Shown: piece by piece, positions 1 to 9,742 of the stretch
How positions within the stretch are numbered: position 1 is the first letter of the stretch
How the letters are laid out: each line of letters opens with the position of its first letter
Source: a virus
Lineage: Duplodnaviria; Heunggongvirae; Uroviricota; Caudoviricetes
Reading direction: 5' to 3' (one strand)
Virus record (IMG/VR): IMGVR_UViG_2695420382_000009
Location: 1 to 9,742 of that record
Length of the DNA stretch: 9,742 nucleotides
Notes under the pieces: generated by a model
Told to the model about the DNA's origin: nothing
The model's database searches: none
The model's input: the letters and a program-made list of their open reading frames with translations, nothing else
Made by a program: the position numbers and the translations under genes

Positions 1-199
1 TACACTAAATCAGTAAGTTGGCAGCATCACCCGGTAATTATTGAGTAATAATAAATTGATTATTGCAAATGTAATTTAATTCCATCTTCGCGTTATATTC
101 CAATCTTTAATCTCCGCATGGAACAAGTTGCATGCGTGACTATATTAAGACAACTTATAACCACCAAAACATTTGCTTTGCAAGCAAAAACAGTGACCA

Positions 200-228
200 T
201 TGACTCTAAGAAAATTCCGATCTATTGT
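200..228 (+). promoter_or_regulatory. Candidate sigma70 promoter (speculative)
   Basis: TTGACT at 200-205 (5/6 match to the -35 consensus), 17-bp spacer, TATTGT at 223-228 (4/6 match to the -10 consensus), in AT-rich DNA upstream of the small ORF at 263. Motif match only. Confidence 0.2.
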
Positions 229-262
229 TAGGGTCATCAAAGTTACTTAACAGTATTCCGAA

Positions 263-364
263 ATGAAAATACAAAGCAAGCTAATTGTCTTATTAAACAT
301 TATTATTGCATTTATATTATTTGAGCTTTTAGCTCAAAAATTTGGTTTGAGTACATTATTTTAA
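263..364 (+). CDS. Hypothetical small hydrophobic peptide, 33 aa (speculative)
   Basis: ATG 263-265 to TAA 362-364, translating to MKIQSKLIVLLNIIIAFILFELLAQKFGLSTLF. One predicted hydrophobic helix. No convincing Shine-Dalgarno (only GAAA before the ATG). Lies between the candidate promoter and the terminator at 513-543. Confidence 0.15.
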   Translation: MKIQSKLIVLLNIIIAFILFELLAQKFGLSTLF

Positions 365-512
365 AGCAAGATAAACAATATCGGGCACTCTAGTTTTTAT
401 AATTAACAATTAAACGTCCATAAAATGTTATTTACTTTTCTTCGCTATTGTCATATCTTAATATAGTGGCTTACGCCACTCTACTTTCATCACATTTTGT
501 ACGTTTATGTAC

Positions 513-543
513 TCGCCATGAAGCTCTTTCATGGCGATTTTTT
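513..543 (+). terminator. Rho-independent terminator, plus-strand orientation
   Basis: Perfect 10-bp stem (513-522 TCGCCATGAA pairing with 528-537 TTCATGGCGA), 5-nt loop GCTCT, then TTTTTT at 538-543. No U-run on the other side, so it is unidirectional. Confidence 0.6.
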
Positions 544-629
544 ATTCTTAATCCAAGAACATACTCCCTACCTATAGCAAAATCACTTTTTTAACAAAAG
601 AATAACGTATTTAGGTAATCATTACGAAT

Positions 630-1211
630 TTACCCTATAGGTGCTACTGGCCATTCAATATCCGGTGCAGTTGATGTATCAACACGGTTCAGCAACACCC
701 GATACTTTTTCCAGGCTTCCAGCAACAAGGTTTCTTTCTCCGTTGCGATCTCCAGATCCACAGCATCCTGAAGCGGCGCTATATGCTCACTGGCTACCTG
801 CATCAGGCTGTTTTTTGTTTCTTCCGCCTCCCGGATCCGGAACAGTTTTTCTGCTTCCGTATCCTTCACCCAGGCTGTGCCGTTCCACTTCTGAAACTCC
901 CCTTCCGGGGATAACCAGGTGACATTTTCCGGTAATGAGCCGAGTTCAGAAATAAATAACGCGTCGCCGGAAGCCACGTCATAAACCGTTTTACCCCGAT
1001 GATCTTCAACGAGATGCCACGATGACTCATCACTGTTGAAAACAGCCACGAAACCAGCCGGAATATCTGGCGGTGCAATATCGGTACTGTTTGCAGGCAG
1101 ACCTGTATGAGGCGGAATATATGCGTCACCTTCACCAATAAATTCATTAGTTCCGGCCAGCAGGTTATAAATTTTTATGGTCCGTGCTTGTTCACTCATT
1201 CTGAATGCCAT
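630..1211 (-). CDS. tfa: Tail fibre assembly protein, lambda Tfa type (Caudo_TAP family), 193 aa
   Basis: 193-aa [27 protein letters not shown]...[25 protein letters not shown], matching lambda Tfa / K-12 TfaR as I recall them. ATG at 1209-1211 overlaps the stf stop (TAATG), the classic stf-tfa coupling. GAGG Shine-Dalgarno about 9 nt upstream. Confidence 0.92.
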
Positions 1212-3410
1212 TATGCGAGCCTCACAATATAGTTAAATGCGATGTTTTTGACGGTGTTTTCCGCGTTACCAGCAGCGTTAACGGTGATGGTGTGTCCATG
1301 TGAACCAATCGCAACAGAGTGCGTATGAGCACCAATACCGACAGTATGCGCGTGTGCACCCGCAGATGCTGCTGTGCCGGACAGTGAGTGTGTATGGTTT
1401 CCTTCTGAAGATGATTTACCTACCCATTGGGAGGTGCCACTGGTTAATGAGCCACTGATACCAACCTGATTAGTCCCGCTAACTTGAGTACTCCCTGCCG
1501 GAAACATTCCAGTAGGTTGACTCCCGCTATTCGTTCTGGGCCCAGTCTGACTATGTTGGTGGGCCCCAGCTGAACTTGTAGAGCCGCTCAGACTGTGCGT
1601 ATGCGCCCCGGTGTTATTCGTGGATTTAGTGCCGTAATCAAACGACGATGTGGTTTTCGTCCCCAAATCCGTACTGGATGCGCTGGCGCTGTGGGTGTGC
1701 GATTTAATGCCATCCTGTTCCTGAGACAATACGGCACGACCACTGGCGGGCTTGCCCTTAATCGTCCAGCCACGCATATCAGGGATCACGCCTGACGGAT
1801 AAGCGGCTGCAAGTTTCGGGTAAGCAGATTTGTCAAAAGTCTGCCCCTGCATCAGGGCATAACCAGACGGAACGGTATCTGATGGCCACGGGATTGGTGC
1901 ACCGACTGGATAAAACTCTGCAGGAGGATGAGCCGAGGTGTAAAGCTGCGCCCACGGCGACCAGTTTGCGTCGGTCGTATCCCGTCGTGAACGAATAAAT
2001 GCCGGAGCATGAGCACCGCTTGTACCACTCCAGCCGATGAGTAACTCACCTTCGCCAACGGCTGTCATCCCTTTCAGGTGAATGATATTTCCATACGCTG
2101 TTGGATATCCGTTGTTATACACCTCGTATAACTCAAGACCTGCTGCCCCCTGCGTATTGTCTGTCAGCGCGGCTACCCGACCTTTTGAAGCCAGATTAAC
2201 TGATGATACTGCTGTTCCACCTGACGGTAGCGCCCCGATCTCTGATGCCGTTGGCTTATTTCTGGAGTTATAGTCCCTTCGCCAGCCAGGTGAATAATCT
2301 GTTCCGTGATTAATATAGGTAAACTGGGCGTTGGTTGTTCCGCCACCGCTGGATGTGGTCGGAGTGGTAATGCGGATCGTCATCGCTGACTTTATCCCCA
2401 TTACTTCAATGACAGCTCCGGCGAGATGAATATTACCGCAGCCAGTATCAGTAATGATTTTATTATTGCCATAAGACCAGGAACCCTTGCACATCCAGTA
2501 TGGATGGTTAAATGCTCCCTGAGAATCCAGCCACTCGATAAACTGTGCAGTCGTCCAGTTTCCTGTTGTTGTGCTTACTGACCCACCGAAGGCACGGCAG
2601 GCACCAATATTTTTCGTAAAGGTGTCTTTGCCAGGGATATCCGCACCGTTCTGATCTTTCTGCAGACGTTTCTCAGCATTGTCATTGGCTGCTTTTACTG
2701 CCTTTGGCGTTGCCGCCAGCGTTTCAGACGTGCTGTTGGTCGCGCTGCTTAGCTGGATTATCCCTTTCTGTGCTGTCGTTGCATCCTGTGCGGTGTATTT
2801 CCCGTTAGCCAGGTCATACGCGGCCTTAACGGCTTTTGGTGTTGCCGCCAGTGACTCGGAAGTGCTGTTAGTCGCACTACTGAGCTGTACTATCCCCTTT
2901 TTCGTCGTGCTCGCATCCTCCAGCGCCACGGCGGATGCAATATCCTCTGCCCGTTTTGCCGCTGTCTCAGCGCGCGTTGCTGCAGATTCCGCCGTACTTT
3001 TGCTCTGAGCTGCTGCCGTCGCACTACCAGCAGCCTCTGTCGCCTTCGTGGATGCCGTCGTGGCGCTGCCCTTCGCTGCTGACGCCTGTCTGGTCGCCTC
3101 ATCTTTTGAAGCAGACGCCGATGATGCCGATGACGCCGCCGAACTGGCGGACGATGCGGCAGCCGTTTTTGAGGATTCTGCACGGGTTTCCGACGCTTTC
3201 GCGTTCGTTTCGGATGTCTTCGCTGCGGAAGCTGACCTCGCTGCTGCCGTGGCCTGCTCAGTGGCTTCGCCAGCCTTCGTTGTGGCTGTTGAAGCGGATG
3301 ATGCGGCGCTTTCTGCCGATTTTCCGGCGGCGGTGGCACTGGCTGAGGCCTGCCCGGCACTTGTTGACGCGGCGCTGGCAGACGACGCAGCCGCTGTTTT
3401 TGAGCCTGCC
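1211..3410 (-). CDS. stf: Side tail fibre protein, 3' portion (central repeats plus lambda Stf / Rac StfR-type C-terminal domain); 5' end cut at n3411
   Basis: Ala/Ser/Thr-rich repeats, duplicated KGI(V/I)[11 protein letters not shown](S/T)[11 protein letters not shown] motif, His-x-His-rich distal region, C-terminus ...[26 protein letters not shown], stop TAA at 1211-1213. The track ORF 1211..3607 is chimeric: above n3411 it encodes an unrelated tfa-like N-terminus and begins with a TTG. Confidence 0.85.
2687..2899 (-). repeat. Imperfect tandem duplication (about 132-bp period) of the conserved phage tail-fibre repeat inside stf
   Basis: The protein motif [27 protein letters not shown] recurs 44 aa later as [27 protein letters not shown]. 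The DNA copies are visibly similar (for example GGCGTTGCCGCCAG... appears twice). Confidence 0.7.
3234..3410. repeat. 177-bp exact repeat, identical to 6839..7015 (stf central region), ending at n3411
   Basis: Base-by-base comparison: GACCTCGCTGCTGCCGTGGCCTGCTCAGTGGCTTCGCC...GCTGTTTTTGAGCCTGCC is identical in both places. A third, near-identical copy with a few SNPs lies in stf at about 5290-5465. Confidence 0.9.
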
Positions 3411-3411
3411 N

Positions 3412-3571
3412 CGTAAGCAATTTTTATGGTGTCTGGCTGAAAATTCTTTTGTTCCTCATACCAGTTTTTGCCATCTTCGCAAAAGAGCCATACCACGCCC
3501 GCTTTTTTAGTTAGCTGGTATTGTTCCGGTGTTTTCGGATTCCCGGCCTTAATATTTTTCAGGTGCATCAT
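3412..3571 (-). CDS. 5' fragment (53 codons) of a P2 G / Mu U-type tail-fibre assembly chaperone gene; cut at n3411
   Basis: ATGATG at 3566-3571 lies 1 nt after the stop of the upstream stf (TAAGATGATG), with a GGGGAG Shine-Dalgarno. It encodes [53 protein letters not shown], which resembles the N-termini of P2 G-like Tfa proteins as I recall them. The frame then runs across n3411 into stf repeat sequence. Confidence 0.6.
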
Positions 3572-3572
3572 C

Positions 3573-6329
3573 TTAAACACTCCCCACGTTGTACCATATT
3601 CCCCCAATCAATTTCTGAATTGGCCTTCTGGCAACAGTGTCGACAATATCATCCGCATTGCTGTTAATTGCGGCTGTTAAAACATAACCTGACGCATCGC
3701 CAAAGCCGTAGTCGCGCCATACGTTTTTATATTCAATGCTGCCAAGACGAATATCCCGAACGACATGATTATGCAGCCATGTGCTTAACCAGTTGTTTTC
3801 CCACACTGAACCATAAATATCGCCACTAGACGCAACTTGCGCACCACTTCCCAGCGCAAATCCCCCATCTGTTTTAAAAATGAAATCACCACCACCATCT
3901 GAACCGTTATTAATATGAACACCATCACCACCGTTATCTTTCCACAAAAACATACGAATTCTTCCGTCTTCGTTGGCGAATGTAATGTGGTGGCGGTAAT
4001 TACTTTTTAATCTAAAATTGCTGCCATTAGATTCAATATCTTTATAAAGATGTAATCCTAACTCATCAATATGTCCGATGCGCGAACCATTTGAATAGAA
4101 GCTAATAATACCATCTCCATCTTGCCTAAATCCGGTGTCGTTATCTCCCAGAACAATGGAGTTTTCACCCAGTGCGTTATCAGTAGCTCCAATAGCTAGA
4201 CCTCCTTTAATTTTGGCCCCGTGGCTGACAGATATAGCACCTGTTCTCAGATTTATAGCGAATGGCCTTAATGGGCCGATATTACCGTTTTCGCCTTGTC
4301 CTTCAGCCGTCGGAATGAAATGAAGAAAATCTTCTGAACGACGGAAAATTAGACCGAAGGTATCATTGAAAATTCGCAGCGCATTCACCGTGCCAATTTT
4401 CAGTTCTCCGGTCATTTTATCGCCGGAACGCTGAACGGCGTTACCAGCCTTGTTTACCGTTTCCTGTAAACCGAGGTATTCGATAACGGCAGCAACGGTC
4501 GATTTCGCAAGAATATCCCGCCCGACTTTTGTCAGGGTTGCCAGGCTGGCGACATCATTCCCCGTAAAATACGGAAACTTGCCTGCCGCAGTAGTAAGTC
4601 CGGCCAGCGCCGTCAGGGTGGCATCTTTCGGTTGCTTACCCGCAAGCGCGTTAGTCATGGTGGTCGCAAAATTCGGGTCGTTGCCCAGCGCCGCAGCCAG
4701 CTCGTTCAGCGTGTTCAGTGCATCAGGTGACGAATCTACAAGGGCGGCAATCGCAGCCATAACGAAAGCCGTGCTTGCGATTTGGGTATTATTCGTTCCC
4801 TGTCGCGCAGTTGGTGTTGTTGGCGTTCCGGTCAGTGCAGGACTATTTAAGGGCGCTTTCTTGTTCGTTTCACCCATTACCGCCTTAACCGCTTTTGGCG
4901 TTGCCGCCAGTGACTCGGAAGTGCTGTTGGTCGCACTGCTGAGCTGTACTATCCCCTTTTTCGTCGTGCTCGCATCCTCCAGCGCCACGGCGGATGCAAT
5001 ATCCTCTGCCCGTTTTGCTGCTGTCTCGGCGCGCGTTGCCGCGGATTCAGCAGCAACTTTGCTCTGAGATGCAGCCGTCGCACTGCCTGCCGCCTCTGAT
5101 GCTTTCGTTGTTGCTGTCGTGGCACTACCTTTCGCTGCTGACGCTTGTCTGGTCGCCTCATCTTTTGAAGCAGACGCAGATGATGCCGATGACGCCGCTG
5201 AACTGGCTGACGATGCGGCTGCTGCCTTAGAGGAAGCAGCATTGTCTGCTGAAGTCTTTGCATTTGTTTCAGAGGTTTTTGCTGCAGAAGCAGACCTCGC
5301 TGCTGCAGTGGCTTGCTCAGTGGCTTTGCCAGCCTTCGTTGTGGCTGTTGAAGCGGATGATGCGGCGCTTTCTGCCGATTTTCCGGCGGCGGTGGCACTG
5401 GCTGAGGCCTGCCCGGCACTTGTTGACGCGGCACTGGCAGATAATGCAGCCGCTGTTTTTGAACCTGCCGCAGCTGAGGCGCTCTGTCCCGCTGCTGTTT
5501 CAGAAGACTTAGCGTTCGTCTCGGACGTTTTTGCCGCCTTCGCGGAATTTCCTGCCGCCGTTGCCGAGGAAGCTGCACTACTGGCACTTGATGATGCATT
5601 CGTTTCTGAAGATTTCGCTGCCTCTTTTGAGGCCGCCGCACCCCGTGCCGAGGTGGCAGCTTCTGACGCCTTCGTGGTCGCTGTGGATGCAGAAGTGGCT
5701 GCCGATTTTTGTGATGCTGCGGCATTCGTTTCTGACGTTTTCGCGGCACTGGCGCTGGTAGCTGCCGCGCTTTTTGATGACTCTGCAGCAGCACTTTTTG
5801 CTGCTTCACGGGCCTTTGTCGATGCCGTTCCTGCGCTGGAAGACGCTGACTGAGCCGACGACGCGGCCTGTCCGGCTGACGTGCTGGCGGCACGTGCTGA
5901 GGCTGCAGCATCGGTTGCATGAGTTGCCGCCTCGCTGGCTGATTTTTTCGCGGCTGCCGTATTCTGTGCAACCGCGGAGGCGTTACGTGACACCTCTTCC
6001 ACCATCTGCTCAAAGCGGCGCAGTGCCTCCGGTCGGACATCATCCTCCGTCATGGCACCGAGAAAATCATTCAGCGTACCTGGTCTGGAACCTTCATAGA
6101 CGGTAATGGTCCCGGCATGTGAAGGCGGAAAACCTTCAACCAGCAGGGTGACGCTGTACTGACCATGCTCAACATCCATGCTGTAACGTCCGGCTTCATC
6201 CGGATTTTCAGAGGCCACCGTGTTCACCACCATCGTGCTGCTGGTTCGTCTGGCCTTCAGCACAATGGTGCAGTTCTGTACTGGTTTTCCTGTGCCATCT
6301 TTAAGCACGCCAGAAATTTTTACTGTCAT
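3573..6329 (-). CDS. stf: Side tail fibre protein, complete, 918 aa, with a C-terminal domain different from the one at 1211..3410
   Basis: ATG at 6327-6329 with GGTGGA Shine-Dalgarno. N-terminus [22 protein letters not shown]... is the conserved Stf start. Long Ala/Ser/Thr-rich repeat region, one [26 protein letters not shown] motif, then a distinct roughly 435-aa C-terminal region (3573..4880) containing [10 protein letters not shown] and ending ...[11 protein letters not shown]. Stop TAA at 3573-3575. Confidence 0.9.
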
Positions 6330-6342
6330 ACTTTTCCACCAA

Positions 6343-6375
6343 TAAAAAAAGCCCGCAGCAGTGACGCCACGGGCT
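6343..6375 (-). terminator. Putative intrinsic terminator downstream of the lom 3' fragment (minus strand)
   Basis: On the minus strand, stem AGCCCG/CGGGCT (6350-6355 with 6370-6375) and a 14-nt loop, followed by a U-run (plus-strand AAAAAAA at 6344-6350). The loop is long, so this is weaker than the one at 7911-7936. Confidence 0.4.
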
Positions 6376-6480
6376 TCAGGACAGTGTAACTTTACGTTTC
6401 CTCAAACGCAGTTCACCCCATAAGGTGGATGAACCTGCGTATCATAACAATATTTACAGAAGATAAATCGGCGTCTGTTG

Positions 6481-6837
6481 TCAGATACGGTATCCGATAC
6501 CAACAATAAATGCATCCGTTCGCCAGTCACCACTACCGGAACCTTCATAAGCAAGGTCAATGGTCACGGATTCGGTCGGGTTAAACTGCACGCCAGCCCC
6601 CCACGCCAGAGACGTGTTGCTGTGGCGACCGTCATCACTTCCGGTCAGCACATCGTGCGTTTTCCCCTTGTTGTCAGTTACGCGGAGATAATCCCCGGAG
6701 AAAGTCGACACACGGCTGTAAGCCACACCCACCATCGCATACGCGCTGAACCATTCATTCACGCGTACAGACGGCCCCGCCATCACGCTGAACCAGCGGT
6801 TACGCACGGAATCTTCATGCCAGCGGGTATCGCTGTA
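6481..6837 (-). CDS. lom: lom 3' fragment (Ail/Lom outer-membrane protein, C-terminal 118 codons); 5' end cut at n6838
   Basis: Encodes YSDTRWHEDSVRNRWFSVMAGPSVRVNEWFSAYAMVGVAYSRVSTF...AWGAGVQFNPTESVTIDLAYEGSGSGDWRTDAFIVGIGYRI, stop at 6481-6483. Matches the lambda Lom C-terminal half. The track ORF 6481..7905 joins it in-frame to stf across n6838, which is an artefact. Confidence 0.8.
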   Translation of the reverse strand, partial: YSDTRWHEDSVRNRWFSVMAGPSVRVNEWFSAYAMVGVAYSRVSTFSGDYLRVTDNKGKTHDVLTGSDDGRHSNTSLAWGAGVQFNPTESVTIDLAYEGSGSGDWRTDAFIVGIGYRI

Positions 6838-6838
6838 N

Positions 6839-7899
6839 GACCTCGCTGCTGCCGTGGCCTGCTCAGTGGCTTCGCCAGCCTTCGTTGTGGCTGTTGAAGC
6901 GGATGATGCGGCGCTTTCTGCCGATTTTCCGGCGGCGGTGGCACTGGCTGAGGCCTGCCCGGCACTTGTTGACGCGGCGCTGGCAGACGACGCAGCCGCT
7001 GTTTTTGAGCCTGCCGCAGCTGAGGCACTCTGTCCCGCTGCCGTTTCAGAAGACCTGGCGTTCGTCTCGGACGTTTTGGCCGCCTTCGCAGAATTTGCAG
7101 CCGCCGTCGCCGAGGAAGCTGCGCTACTGGCGCTTGATGATGCGTTCGTTTCTGATGATTTTGCCGCCTCTTTTGAAGCCGACGCATCCCGGGCTGAGGT
7201 GGCAGCTTCTGACGCTTTCGTGGTCGCGGTGGATGCAGAAGTGGCTGCTGATTGTTGTGACGCTGCCGCATTCGTTTCTAACGTTTTCGCCGCACCGGCA
7301 CTGGTAGCCGCCGCGCTTTTTGAGGACTCTGCAGCGGCAGCACTTTTTGAGGCTTCAGTGGCCTTTGTTGATGCCGTTCCTGCGCTGGAAGACGCTGACT
7401 GAGCCGACGAAGCGGCCTGTCCGGCTGACGTGCTGGCTGCACGTGCTGAATCTGCAGCATCAGTCGCATGGGTTGCCGCCTCACGGGCTGATGTGCTGGC
7501 ATCGCTGGCTGATTTCTTCGCGGCTGCCGTGTTCTGTGCCACCGCGGACGCGTTACGCGCCACCTCTTCCACCATCAGCTCAAAACGGCGCAGTGCCTCC
7601 GGACGGGCATCATCCTCCGTCATGGCACCGAGAAAATCATTCAGCGTACCGGGTCGGGAATCTTCATACACGGTGATGGTCCCGGCATGTGACGGCGGGA
7701 ATCCTTCCACCAACAGAATAACGCTGTACTGACCGTACTCAACGTCCATGCTGTAACGCCCGGCTTCATCCGGATTTTCTGAGGCCAGCGTGTTCACCAC
7801 CACCGTGGTGCTGTTACGTTTTGCTTTCAGCTGGATTGTGCAGTTCTGTACCGGTTTTCCTGTGCCGTCTTTCAGTACACCTGAAATCTTTACTGCCAT
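6839..7899 (-). CDS. stf: Side tail fibre protein, 5' portion (353 codons); 3' end cut at n6838
   Basis: ATG at 7897-7899 (the track's start at 7905 is a GTG two codons upstream), GGGGTG Shine-Dalgarno. [60 protein letters not shown]... is the lambda Stf N-terminus as I recall it. About 90% identical to the N-terminal half of the stf at 3573..6329, with small indels such as an extra DASTSAR. Confidence 0.85.
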
Positions 7900-7910
7900 A
7901 TTCACCCCAC

Positions 7911-7936
7911 AAAAAAGCCCGCCTGAACCGGCGGGC
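7911..7936 (-). terminator. Rho-independent terminator between lom and stf (minus strand)
   Basis: On the minus strand, a perfect 7-bp GC stem GCCCGCC/GGCGGGC (7917-7923 with 7930-7936), 6-nt loop, then a U-run (plus-strand AAAAAA at 7911-7916). About 28 nt after the lom stop and about 12 nt before the stf start codon. Confidence 0.7.
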
Positions 7937-7963
7937 TGTCATAACACTGTGTTACCTGGCTAA

Positions 7964-8649
7964 TCAGAATTTATAACCGACACCCACGATGAAACCGTCA
8001 GTGCGCCAGAGACGTGTTGCTGTGGCGACCGTCATCACTTCCGGTCAGCACATCGTGCGTTTTCCCCTTATTGTCAGTTACGCGGATATAATCCCCGGAA
8101 AAAGTCGACACACGGCTGTAAGCCACACCCGCCATCGCATACGCGCTGAACCATTCATTCACGCGCACAGACGGCCCCGCCATCACGCTGAACCAGCGGT
8201 TACGCACGGAATCTTCATGCCAGCGGGTATCGCTGTAGTGCGTTTTTTGCTCATCCTCAGCATTGGCATAACTGAAGGACGTAANNNNNNNNNNNNNNNN
8301 NNNNNNNNNNNNCGCTGAACCATTCATTCACGCGCACAGACGGCCCCGCCATCACGCTGAACCAGCGGTTACGCACGGAATCTTCATGCCAGCGGGTATC
8401 GCTGTAACGGGTCAGCTGGCGATTCTTGTCTCCTGCATAGCTGAATGACGTCACCAGCCCCAGCGTATCCGTAAACTCATAACGGTATTTCACGTTAATC
8501 CCGTTCAGATCATCACTGCCGGGAACGTTGGTCCGGGCATGAAGATACCCCGCGCTCAGCGTGGACTGATGTTCAGACGCCCATGCAGGCGCACCGGATA
8601 CGGCCAGGCAAATGGCTGCGGACAAAATGGCTGCACAAACTTTACGCAT
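7964..8649 (-). pseudogene. lom: lom (Ail/Lom-family outer-membrane protein), disrupted by the 28-N gap, a 94-bp duplication across the gap and an about 83-bp frameshifting deletion near the 3' end
   Basis: ATG at 8647-8649 with GAGAGGT Shine-Dalgarno. MRKVCAAILSAAICLAVSGAPAWA signal peptide, then SEHQSTLSAGYLHARTNVPGSDDLNGINVKYRYEFTDTLGLVTSFSYAGDKNRQLTRYSDTRWHEDSVRNRW.... Sequence 8144..8237 is repeated at 8313..8406 on either side of the gap. The reading frame ends ...SNTSLAH with a stop at 7998-8000, while the remaining homology (RTDGFIVGVGYKF, stop at 7964-7966) is in another frame. Confidence 0.7.
8285..8312. other. Assembly gap (28 N) inside lom
   Basis: Run of n characters. It is flanked by a duplicated 94-bp lom segment, and the lom sequences on either side of that segment are different alleles. 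Confidence 0.99.
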
Positions 8650-8673
8650 AATTACCTCTCGCTTTTCTGCAAT

Positions 8674-8697
8674 AAAAAAGGCGTCATTCCTGACGCC
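8674..8697 (-). terminator. Rho-independent terminator between J and lom (minus strand)
   Basis: On the minus strand, a 7-bp stem GGCGTCA/TGACGCC (8680-8686 with 8691-8697), 4-nt loop, then a U-run (plus-strand AAAAAA at 8674-8679). About 23 nt after the J stop and about 25 nt before the lom start codon. Confidence 0.6.
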
Positions 8698-8719
8698 ATT
8701 TATTGGGGTTATAAATATT

Positions 8720-9742
8720 TCAACGAATACTGATGCCGGAAGCCGCTTTTTTGGTCACAATCACCGTACAGTCGGTGATATTGCCTGCCCCCTGATTGCC
8801 TTTCTGGAAAATCTTAAACTCCAGAGTGACGCTACCACCACCACTAGGCATATCAATAACTGCACTGTAACTACCGGGAATGGCACCTTTAGTTTCTCTG
8901 GATGCGATTAATACGCCGTTTTTGCGAACTTCAAAACCATAACCCGTGTATCGCGTGCCTCCTGGGTTATTTCCGCTCCCCGGATCGTCATACGCTATAC
9001 CGTTAAAAATAATGGGCGGAATAATAATCTGGCGGTCAAAGTTATGATCATCGCTTATGGTGACTGTAACCGTCCCGTTTGGTGTTTCCGTGTTACCCCA
9101 CGTACCAGCCTGTTTCGGAAATGATTTGGATACAGCTTTAACGAAGTCACCTCTGACCTGAGTCGCCTCCAGCATGCCCTTAATCGTACAGTTTTCATTT
9201 ACCGTGACATTGTTGAGCGTCCCGGCGTTCGCATTCACACTGCCACTGATATCCGCATTTTTAGCGGTCAGCTTTCCGTCCGGAGTCAGGGAAAATGCCG
9301 ATGGATTTCCACCGCTGGTAATGGTGGGGGCCGTCAGGCGTTTCAGGAACACGTCGTTCATGAATATCTGATCGCCCTGACCAACAAACATCGGTTTTGT
9401 GTTGCCATTCGCAGGATTAACCATCGCAATCCTGTCCGCCGCCAGCAGCACCTGACTCTGCATGCCGTCAGGGGTGTTCTCAATACCGGCACCAATACCC
9501 GCGATATAAAGGCGTCCGTCCTGCATCTGCTGCAGCTTCACAGCCCACATGCTGTTCAGGTTATTATTTGTATCAACCTGAACCTTCTGTATCTGCTGAA
9601 TTGCCGCACTCTGGTCTTCCAGTTTCTTATTGACGGTCTGCGTGATTTCATTGCTGACATCCGTAATGGACGTCCTGATTTCAGCCAGGTCAGGCGCAAG
9701 CTGACCGTTATCAATCTGCGTCCACAGCTCCTGAGCCAGATG
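8720..9742 (-). CDS. J: Host specificity / tail tip fibre protein J, C-terminal 340 codons (partial; 5' end lies beyond the window)
   Basis: The frame is open from 9742 to the TGA at 8720-8722. It encodes HLAQELWTQIDNGQLAPDLAEIRTSITDVSNEITQTVNKKLEDQSAAIQQIQKVQVDTNNNLNSMWAVKLQQMQDGRLYIAGIGAGIENTPDGMQSQVLLAADRIAMVNPANGNTKPMFVGQGDQIFMNDVFLKRLTAPTITSGGNP..., matching lambda J as I recall it. The track ORF 8720..9550 is only the part after an internal Met. Confidence 0.9.
   Translation of the reverse strand, partial: HLAQELWTQIDNGQLAPDLAEIRTSITDVSNEITQTVNKKLEDQSAAIQQIQKVQVDTNNNLNSMWAVKLQQMQDGRLYIAGIGAGIENTPDGMQSQVLLAADRIAMVNPANGNTKPMFVGQGDQIFMNDVFLKRLTAPTITSGGNPSAFSLTPDGKLTAKNADISGSVNANAGTLNNVTVNENCTIKGMLEATQVRGDFVKAVSKSFPKQAGTWGNTETPNGTVTVTISDDHNFDRQIIIPPIIFNGIAYDDPGSGNNPGGTRYTGYGFEVRKNGVLIASRETKGAIPGSYSAVIDMPSGGGSVTLEFKIFQKGNQGAGNITDCTVIVTKKAASGISIR

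Follow-up and report, generated by a model that had tools for sequence, protein, structure and literature searches.

The window analysed here, a stretch of 9,742 nucleotides of viral DNA, carries tail genes of lambdoid prophages and is interrupted by non-ACGT letters at 3411 (one N), 6838 (one N) and 8285-8312 (28 N) and nowhere else. These letters delimit block A (1-3410), block B (3412-6837), block C (6839-8284) and block D (8313-9742). The window has a length of 9.7 kb, against about 6.0 kb for the same gene set in closed genomes. Its features belong to two loci, locus 1 (blocks D, C and A, with the gene order J-lom-stf-tfa) and locus 2 (block B, lom-stf-tfa').

1-31, no strand: terminal 31 nt of IS1, directly abutting position 32; 100% identical to IS1 ends beside InsA/InsB genes in L005, L013 and others
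630-1211, minus strand: tfa of locus 1 (block A), intact tail fibre assembly protein of 193 aa; PF02413 Caudo_TAP, E = 4.6e-44
1211-3410, minus strand: 3' part of locus-1 stf (block A), approximately aa 295-1027 of a 1,027-aa Stf; matched in L013 and L015, with Phage_fiber_2 and Collar domains
3234-3410, no strand: last 177 nt of block A, recurring at 100% identity as 6839-7015, where block C begins; both map to L013 6802-6978
3411, no strand: single n, false join of block A (locus 1) to block B (locus 2), from comparison with closed-genome flanks
3412-3571, minus strand: first 160 nt of locus-2 tfa', cut by the contig end; equals L005 8918-8759
3573-6329, minus strand: locus-2 stf, 918 aa, intact and real; PF08400 phage_tail_N and gp37_trimer
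4461-4486, plus strand: gix/pix-like 26-bp crossover site (24/26) in locus-2 stf, at the boundary of the constant part and the exchangeable tip
6481-6837, minus strand: 3' 357 nt of locus-2 lom, cut by the contig end; from the match of B with L005, Ail_Lom profile positions 73-198
6838, no strand: single n, false join of block B (locus 2) to block C (locus 1), from comparison with closed-genome flanks
6839-7899, minus strand: 5' part of locus-1 stf (block C), approximately aa 1-354; PF08400, E = 3.9e-72
7998-8237, minus strand: 3' part of locus-1 lom with an 83-nt deletion; ungapped in six closed chromosomes
8238-8284, no strand: 47-nt tip of block C, belonging to locus-2 lom, from the exact substring formed by B and this tip
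8285-8312, no strand: 28-N scaffold gap; by comparison with closed genomes C and D in truth overlap, with no gap between them
8313-8406, no strand: first 94 nt of block D, a 100% duplicate of 8144-8237 in block C and a contig overlap; both map to L013 5580-5673
8313-8649, minus strand: 5' part of locus-1 lom (block D), PF06316 profile positions 1-114
8720-9742, minus strand: 3' end of locus-1 J (tail tip gene), running past the window edge, from mapping to L013

Gene identity changes at every N position, as the original prediction had proposed for n3411, n6838 and the N-run; the positions are exact, and gene content and domains differ on the two sides of each. Its reading of stf below n3411 and the 5' end of a tfa-like gene above it was borne out, with 3410 in the Ala/Ser-rich central part of stf and the start of tfa' at 3412. 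The same holds for lom below n6838 and stf above it, with the 3' end of an Ail/Lom gene reaching 6837 and stf running from 6839. The doubling of a 94-bp lom segment across the N-run, with differing flanks, was found exactly as described: past the shared 94-mer the two sides diverge into GTGCGTTTT... at 8238 and ACGGGTCAG... at 8407. A further copy of this 94-mer, with 1 mismatch to 8144-8237, lies at 6744-6837.

Two open reading frames (1211-3607 and 6481-7905, both on the minus strand) read through a single n in frame, each with one X residue. The second carries PF08400 phage_tail_N at aa 3-136 followed by PF06316 Ail_Lom at aa 344-473. Had the two single-n joins not chanced to keep the reading frame, these Tfa'-Stf and Stf-Lom frames would not exist. 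An exact look-up retrieved no public record of a fused frame as a called gene. A genuine fusion is recognised as uninterrupted sequence recurring in independent genomes, and here an N stands at each fusion point.

In closed Shigella sonnei-lineage chromosomes a single contiguous J-lom-stf-tfa locus is covered by blocks D, C (to 8237) and A, which overlap by exactly 94 nt (D and C) and 177 nt (C and A). Merged through these overlaps, A (32-3410), C (7016-8237) and D (8407-9742) give 5,937 nt, which correspond to L015 (UGZB01000001.1) 4244-10180 with 1 mismatch and to L013 (CP023645.1) with 4 mismatches, at the same length and without gaps. Taken separately, A 32-3410 is 99.88% identical to L013 10180-6802 and 99.97% identical to L015, C 6839-8237 matches L013 6978-5580 at 100% without gaps, and D 8313-9742 matches L013 5673-4244 at 100%. 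In 3,748 closed E. coli records A and C follow each other without interruption, the best match reaching 99.6%. The exact 193-aa Tfa occurs in closed chromosomes directly after the 1,027-aa Stf, whose start at L013 5918 equals window position 7899, and J spans L013 1769-5266 as a protein of 1,165 aa with GpJ Pfam domains. Base 2921 of the window is C, matching the paralogue, possibly a strain-specific A/C difference.

Blocks A and C, two of the four, share 177 identical nt where A ends and C begins; this is a contig overlap and not a copy of a genomic repeat. At the other end of C, locus 1 carries ACGGGTCAG... where the window has 8238-8284, and deletion of 8238-8406 gives back the closed-genome sequence. 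The boundary 8237/8238 is thus a chimeric junction without any N mark, the fifth junction of the window. The stretch may also be read as a third lom copy, with the body of locus 1 and the 47-nt tip. Exact repeats common to both loci lie inside the two overlaps, a 105-nt core within the 177-nt A/C overlap and a 71-nt core within the 94-nt C/D overlap. No single simple k-mer size fits the overlap lengths together with these cores. A de Bruijn overlap of k-1 = 94 for the contig ends was considered and dropped; it misfits the 177-nt A/C overlap, the 71-nt core and the 47-nt wrong-branch tip.

Block B has a different origin. Positions 3412-6837 equal L005 8918-5493 at 100.000% over 3,426 nt, and the same match is found in S. 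sonnei 53G (HE616528.1) and other closed chromosomes. Extended by the 47-nt tip of C, B is found letter for letter as a 3,473-nt substring in L005 and L007, and in S. sonnei 53G. In closed genomes it is flanked by the rest of lom and J on one side and by the rest of tfa' on the other. The full tfa' there (L005 8759-9286) encodes 175 aa with PF02413, and the full locus-2 Lom (L005 5250-5849) has 199 aa. The exact 918-aa Stf occurs in 272 blocks of public assemblies, S. sonnei 53G (HE616528.1) among them. UGZB01000001.1 holds both loci, at approximately 16.1-19.5 kb and 570.9-576.8 kb, about 551 kb apart. Within the closed E. coli collection no record covers at least 80% of B, and this poor coverage had suggested that B itself could be chimeric. 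That possibility was ruled out by exact protein look-up, which led to 100% matches of B in closed S. sonnei chromosomes. The matching chromosomes fall outside the closed E. coli collection; closed S. sonnei records include HE616528 (53G) and CP019689 (75/02).

The flanks in closed genomes differ from those in the window at both single-n joins. At 3411, A continues in closed genomes as GCAGCTGAGGCACTC, which is C from 7016 onward, while B is preceded by TACTGACAGCAACG, the rest of tfa'. At 6838, B continues as GTGCGTTTTTTGCTC, which is window 8238-8284, while the sequence ahead of C is ...GCTGCGGAAGCT, present in the window as A 3204-3233. Across 5,426 closed E. coli genomes no match crosses 3411, where matches begin exactly at 3412, and none crosses 6838, the two sides of which lie about 1.4 kb apart and in reverse order. 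As for the cause of B's end at 3412, a search of the 14.7-kb closed locus found no strong repeat there. Draft contig L010 has another copy of the tip cassette, which was examined as such a repeat and rejected, since it starts at the gix site and not at 3412; this copy has 3 mismatches near the gix site and is identical beyond them.

How the blocks tile and overlap, and that each of them matches closed chromosomes, are direct results. The junctions fall on N letters written by the assembler, the blocks merge through terminal overlaps into closed-genome sequence, and the junctions are missing from independent closed assemblies. The window is almost certainly a draft short-read scaffold of Shigella sonnei, or of a near-identical strain, that interleaves contigs of two paralogous tail-fibre loci from lambdoid prophages. 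The gene fusions that it seems to carry are an assembly artefact and the biology is ordinary. Blocks D, C and A are consecutive pieces of locus 1 in the right order and orientation, and B is the sole interloper. The genome truly has two stf and two lom paralogues; what is spurious is limited to the fusions and the duplications of 177 and 94 nt.

The original prediction of blocks joined at repeats is supported, with refinements. Comparison with the closed chromosomes confirms the joins as false; there are five pieces and not four, because the final 47 nt of C belong with B; three of the pieces come from one locus, and B alone is foreign. Its view of the fusion proteins as artefacts is supported, as both single-n junctions are absent from the closed E. 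coli genomes and the closed flanks differ. Its distrust of gene calls, copy number and synteny was well placed, given the false extra partial stf and lom, the false duplications and the wrong synteny of the two prophages. The 177-nt A/C overlap, the N-less junction at 8237/8238 and the 31-nt IS1 end at the window start had escaped it.

Some features of the window are genuine. Relative to E. coli NCTC9967, locus-1 lom lacks 83 nt at junction 8003/8010, with CGCCAG repeats flanking the deletion. The deletion was not found in the top closed E. coli matches, and its microhomology amounts to only 6 nt, so it was considered as a further artefact. Six closed S. sonnei-lineage chromosomes have the identical, ungapped sequence, which ruled this out; the deletion truncates Lom to 160 aa, the length called in those six chromosomes. 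The IS1 end at 1-31 is likewise a genuine sequence feature, and in closed genomes 151 more nt lie between the IS1 end and the equivalent of window position 32.

The gix-like site in the stf of B is also genuine. It agrees at 24 of 26 positions with a gix sequence, where 0 such sites are expected by chance. Similarity to a P2-like prophage cassette beside a recombinase gene ends at this site (B 3412-4490 equals L003 5001-6079), and draft contig L006 has both a resolvase gene and a partner site in inverted orientation. Closed S. sonnei 53G has neither this partner site nor the recombinase, and an IS1 end stands in their place, so that the segment is probably frozen. The site is unrelated to the N junctions.

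An assembly history can be proposed for the interleaving. Locus 1, consisting of J, the truncated lom, the 1,027-aa stf, the 193-aa tfa and then IS1, would have been assembled as contigs D, C and A, with contig breaks at the exact repeats common with locus 2 (the 105-nt and 71-nt cores). Contig B comes from locus 2 (lom 3' end, 918-aa stf, tfa' 5' end), about 551 kb off in a closed chromosome. The scaffolder would then have put B between C and A with one n per join, and we infer that it was misled by read pairs or by similarity through repeats. By scaffolder convention, a single n would stand for a join whose estimated gap is zero or negative and for which no overlap was detected. Contig C would have run 47 nt along the wrong branch into locus-2 lom; owing to this run, the C/D overlap would have gone unrecognised and the 28-N gap would have been written instead.

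Other readings accept more of the window as written. Inter-prophage recombination could have put a locus-2 segment into the stf of locus 1, with a 177-nt direct duplication flanking it and true Stf-Lom and Tfa'-Stf genes. Both read-through frames stay in frame across the n, and segments of 88-98% similarity common to the two loci could support recombination. However, the in-frame state at two joins has a chance of about 1 in 9, and such a fusion is not accounted for by homologous recombination, because the junctions pair non-homologous positions (stf codon ~354 with lom, and stf codon ~295 with tfa' codon 53). Moreover, every junction coincides exactly with an N written by the assembler, the duplicates on either side are precisely what overlapping ends of neighbouring contigs would give, closed chromosomes 1-4 nt from the reconstruction hold the loci apart, and neither junction occurs in closed E. 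coli genomes or public gene calls. A real fusion in this strain is therefore very improbable. An equally slight chance is given to the statement that the insertion of locus 2 into locus-1 stf might be real, in the modest version of which only the IS1 end lying 151 nt nearer to tfa and C2921 are real.

Inversion or shuffling of tail-fibre genes by a Pin/Gin-type invertase, in a mixed population beyond the assembler, is suggested by the gix-like site at 4461-4486 and by a tip cassette that matches invertible-segment cassettes adjoining recombinase genes. Yet the window has a single such site, some 1 kb away from the closest N and within a block 100% colinear with closed genomes; none is found at any of the three N junctions, and S. 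sonnei 53G has an IS1 end in place of the partner site and recombinase. This makes inversion even less credible than a real fusion. No greater probability attaches to a correct contig layout from a mixed sample or variant subpopulation, with N as unresolved polymorphism. A single N is an ambiguous base call in some pipelines, but the sides of each single n are different genes from loci about 551 kb apart in the closed chromosome.

The misassembly reading agrees with repeat-induced scaffold misjoins in short-read assemblies of poly-lysogenic Escherichia/Shigella, in which contigs end at sequence common to paralogous prophages. Identical terminal overlaps (177 and 94 nt), N-marked joins, a wedged paralogous contig and chimeric reading frames are shared with such cases, whereas the additional N-less wrong-branch extension of 47 nt (8238-8284) is less common. 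Both reconstructed loci follow the order of the lambda-type J-lom-stf-tfa module of phage lambda and of Rac, Qin and e14 of E. coli K-12, with GpJ domains, Ail_Lom (PF06316), phage_tail_N (PF08400) and Caudo_TAP (PF02413). They differ from it in the 83-nt deletion of locus-1 lom and in the P2/Mu-like exchangeable tip cassette at the end of locus-2 stf. The window as written does not keep the proper order, and its modules are cut and interleaved. Locus 2 also resembles the Din-family segments (Mu Gin/G segment, P1 Cin/C segment and e14 Pin/P segment) in its 26-bp gix-like site at the boundary of the constant part and the variable tip, in the succession of stf, a tfa and, in inverted orientation, another tfa with an alternative tip, and in related contigs that hold an inverted partner site and a resolvase-family gene. 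In contrast to those systems, the window has one site and no recombinase, and closed S. sonnei 53G lacks the partner site.

The value of this result lies in quality control only. The corrected picture holds nothing novel, namely two ordinary lambdoid tail-fibre loci that are both already present in closed S. sonnei genomes. Gene calls from the scaffold would produce two nonsense fusion proteins with an X residue each and would add an extra partial stf and lom that do not exist, besides spurious duplications of 177 and 94 nt and incorrect synteny of two prophages. Tail-fibre sequences serve in host-range studies and prophage typing, and such chimeras could therefore mislead comparative analyses or enter protein databases.

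Non-ACGT characters occur in the window solely at 3411, 6838 and 8285-8312 (a run of 28 N), exactly where the original prediction had placed the switches in gene identity, and all of its sequence-level claims are borne out. Every gene lies on the minus strand, and the blocks are as follows.

1-3410: block A
3412-6837: block B
6839-8284: block C
8313-9742: block D

Two ORFs (1211-3607 and 6481-7905) read in frame through the single n's. According to Pfam, ORF 6481-7905 joins the N-terminal domain of a prophage tail fibre (aa 3-136) to an Ail/Lom barrel of which the C-terminal two thirds remain (aa 344-473). ORF 1211-3607 places a 53-residue piece of a tail fibre assembly protein ahead of a fibre body (Phage_fiber_2 repeats and Collar; Pfam and translation). 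Both are mixed-gene products, as had been proposed.

The lom segment 8144-8237 (94 nt) was said to be duplicated across the N-run. Its exact second copy was found at 8313-8406, lom sequence past it is unlike on either side, as claimed, and a third copy with one mismatch lies at 6744-6837. The first reading missed that the last 177 nt of A (3234-3410) are 100% identical to the first 177 nt of C (6839-7015); two blocks that are non-adjacent in the window thus overlap end to end. Exact repeats of B with other blocks are shorter than the 177-nt A/C overlap, and one k-mer size cannot account for the overlap lengths.

3269-3373, 5328-5432 and 6874-6978: 105-nt exact repeat, inside the 177-nt overlap
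6767-6837, 8167-8237 and 8336-8406: 71-nt exact repeat, inside the 94-mer
2880-2959 and 4939-5018: 80-nt exact repeat

The intact 193-aa Tfa of A is encoded in closed chromosomes, one of them that of S. sonnei 75/02 (CP019689), where J (1,165 aa), a short Lom of 160 aa and a Stf of 1,027 aa come before it. D, C and A tile a single stretch of this closed J-lom-stf-tfa region (locus 1), overlapping by exactly 94 and 177 nt. The matches to L013, the locus of CP023645.1, are listed below in L013 positions.

Block D: 5673-4244, 100% identity
Block C, 6839-8237: 6978-5580, 100% identity, ungapped
Block A, 32-3410: 10180-6802, 99.9% identity

In the closed genomes, A 3204-3233 immediately precedes C, and A runs on as C from 7016 onward. 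The reconstructed locus (A 32-3410, C 7016-8237 and D 8407-9742; 5,937 nt) has one mismatch to UGZB01000001.1 and four to CP023645.1. The sole mismatch to UGZB01000001.1 is position 2921, which is C in the window and A in six of six closed chromosomes; the change is synonymous, and the paralogous base 4980 of block B is also C. Possible sources of this difference are a plain SNP, gene conversion and cross-talk between the paralogues in the consensus.

Block B comes from a second prophage region, locus 2. Exact protein look-up found its intact 918-aa Stf in many assemblies, including closed chromosomes such as that of Shigella sonnei 53G (HE616528.1), where the context is normal: J, Lom (199 aa), Stf and Tfa (175 aa), then an inverted Tfa. 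B matches locus-2 records at 100.000% identity across all 3,426 nt. In UGZB01000001.1, both loci are present, about 551 kb apart by coordinates. In closed genomes, the rest of the 175-aa tail fibre assembly gene precedes B, and B runs on into GTGCGTTTTTTGCTC..., which equals window 8238-8284. This closed flank assigns the 47-nt right tip of C, judged by sequence, to locus-2 lom (100% identity), while the body of C to 8237 is locus 1; 53G contains B plus the tip as one exact 3,473-nt stretch. Therefore, the C/D overlap is not terminal and a 28-N gap was written instead. Position 8237/8238 is a fifth, chimeric junction without an N flag, and 8238-8406 (169 nt) is spurious relative to locus 1. 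The contig may have been extended along the wrong branch via the exact 71-nt repeat; alternatively, there may be a third copy of lom.

Among closed E. coli genomes, the J-lom-stf-tfa loci that the window matches span approximately 6.0 kb, versus 9.7 kb in the window. A and C merged via their overlap (912-nt query) are contiguous in 3,748 closed E. coli records, with a top identity of 99.6%. In strain Z226-5, A 2245-3410 maps to 8285-9450 and C 6839-7484 to 9274-9919, so the target positions overlap. A query across 3411 had no spanning match in this collection, all matches beginning exactly at 3412. For a query across 6838, the two sides lay about 1.4 kb apart in reversed order, as in a normal stf-lom arrangement. 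No record in the collection contained block B at a coverage of at least 80%. The Z226-5 stf nearest A/C (L001 7780-11003) carries the annotation 'phage terminase large subunit family protein', with a frameshift; terminase and tail-fibre sequence appear to have been brought together by a large deletion inside the prophage, close to the bio/ybhB region.

Compared with the lom genes of locus 2 and of E. coli NCTC9967, that of locus 1 is missing 83 nt (window 7998-8237, junction 8003/8010). A CGCCAG direct repeat stands on each side of the deletion, which alters the reading frame and leaves a truncated Lom of 160 aa. A further artefact was considered here and rejected: the deletion is genuine because the identical ungapped sequence, with its 160-aa call, occurs in all six closed chromosomes examined, including S. 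sonnei 75/02. At the window start, the last 31 nt of an IS1 run straight into position 32. Closed chromosomes have another 151 nt between the IS1 end and this point (L013 10181-10331, absent from the window), and none of the loci compared has the IS1/position-32 junction. The difference could reflect a strain-specific IS1 position, a deletion next to IS1 or an effect of the contig end.

One candidate recombination site was identified inside locus-2 stf.

4461-4486: gix/pix-like 26-bp crossover site TTCCTGTAAACCGAGGTATTCGATAA, 24/26 matches, 0 expected by chance

It adjoins a tip cassette with 98% identity to one from an invertible segment in a P2-like prophage. The related draft contig L006 has a partner site (12236-12261) and a resolvase gene (12316-12903). 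The locus-2 segment is probably frozen in closed S. sonnei 53G, since both are absent there and an IS1 end occupies that place. Another draft contig, FTVD01000086.1 (L010), carries the cassette region twice in direct orientation (L010 7840-10700 and 11858-14718); the copies differ at three positions, each close to the gix site, with no difference beyond it. The region may truly be duplicated, or the same repeat family may have given rise to another assembly artefact.

Near-identical segments common to both tail-fibre regions would have made short-read contigs break or wander, and a scaffolder may then have tied contig B to C and A via shared repeats. A single n would have been written where adjacency was expected without an overlap being found, presumably by a convention of some scaffolders. 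Repeats within the closed locus were searched for a cause of B's end at 3412, and none was found. Invertase-mediated shuffling is a fair idea for the switches, as the gix-like site of B's stf marks the edge of a tip cassette common to invertible segments; however, the window has no second such site, this one is far from every N, and the block around it keeps perfect colinearity with closed genomes. That B was truly inserted into locus-1 stf in this strain is highly improbable: it would require two illegitimate junctions falling exactly on the assembler's N marks, and a 177-nt duplication identical to the contig overlap.

The suspicion that the fusions are artefacts is upheld by the closed-chromosome tiling, the 100% match of B elsewhere and the queries across the junctions without a spanning match, and the exact look-ups of the 918-aa Stf and 193-aa Tfa settle the question. 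As quality control, the original prediction was right: the window's fusions, surplus partial gene copies and synteny are artefacts. The underlying biology, a pair of ordinary lambdoid side tail fibre loci in S. sonnei, was already known.
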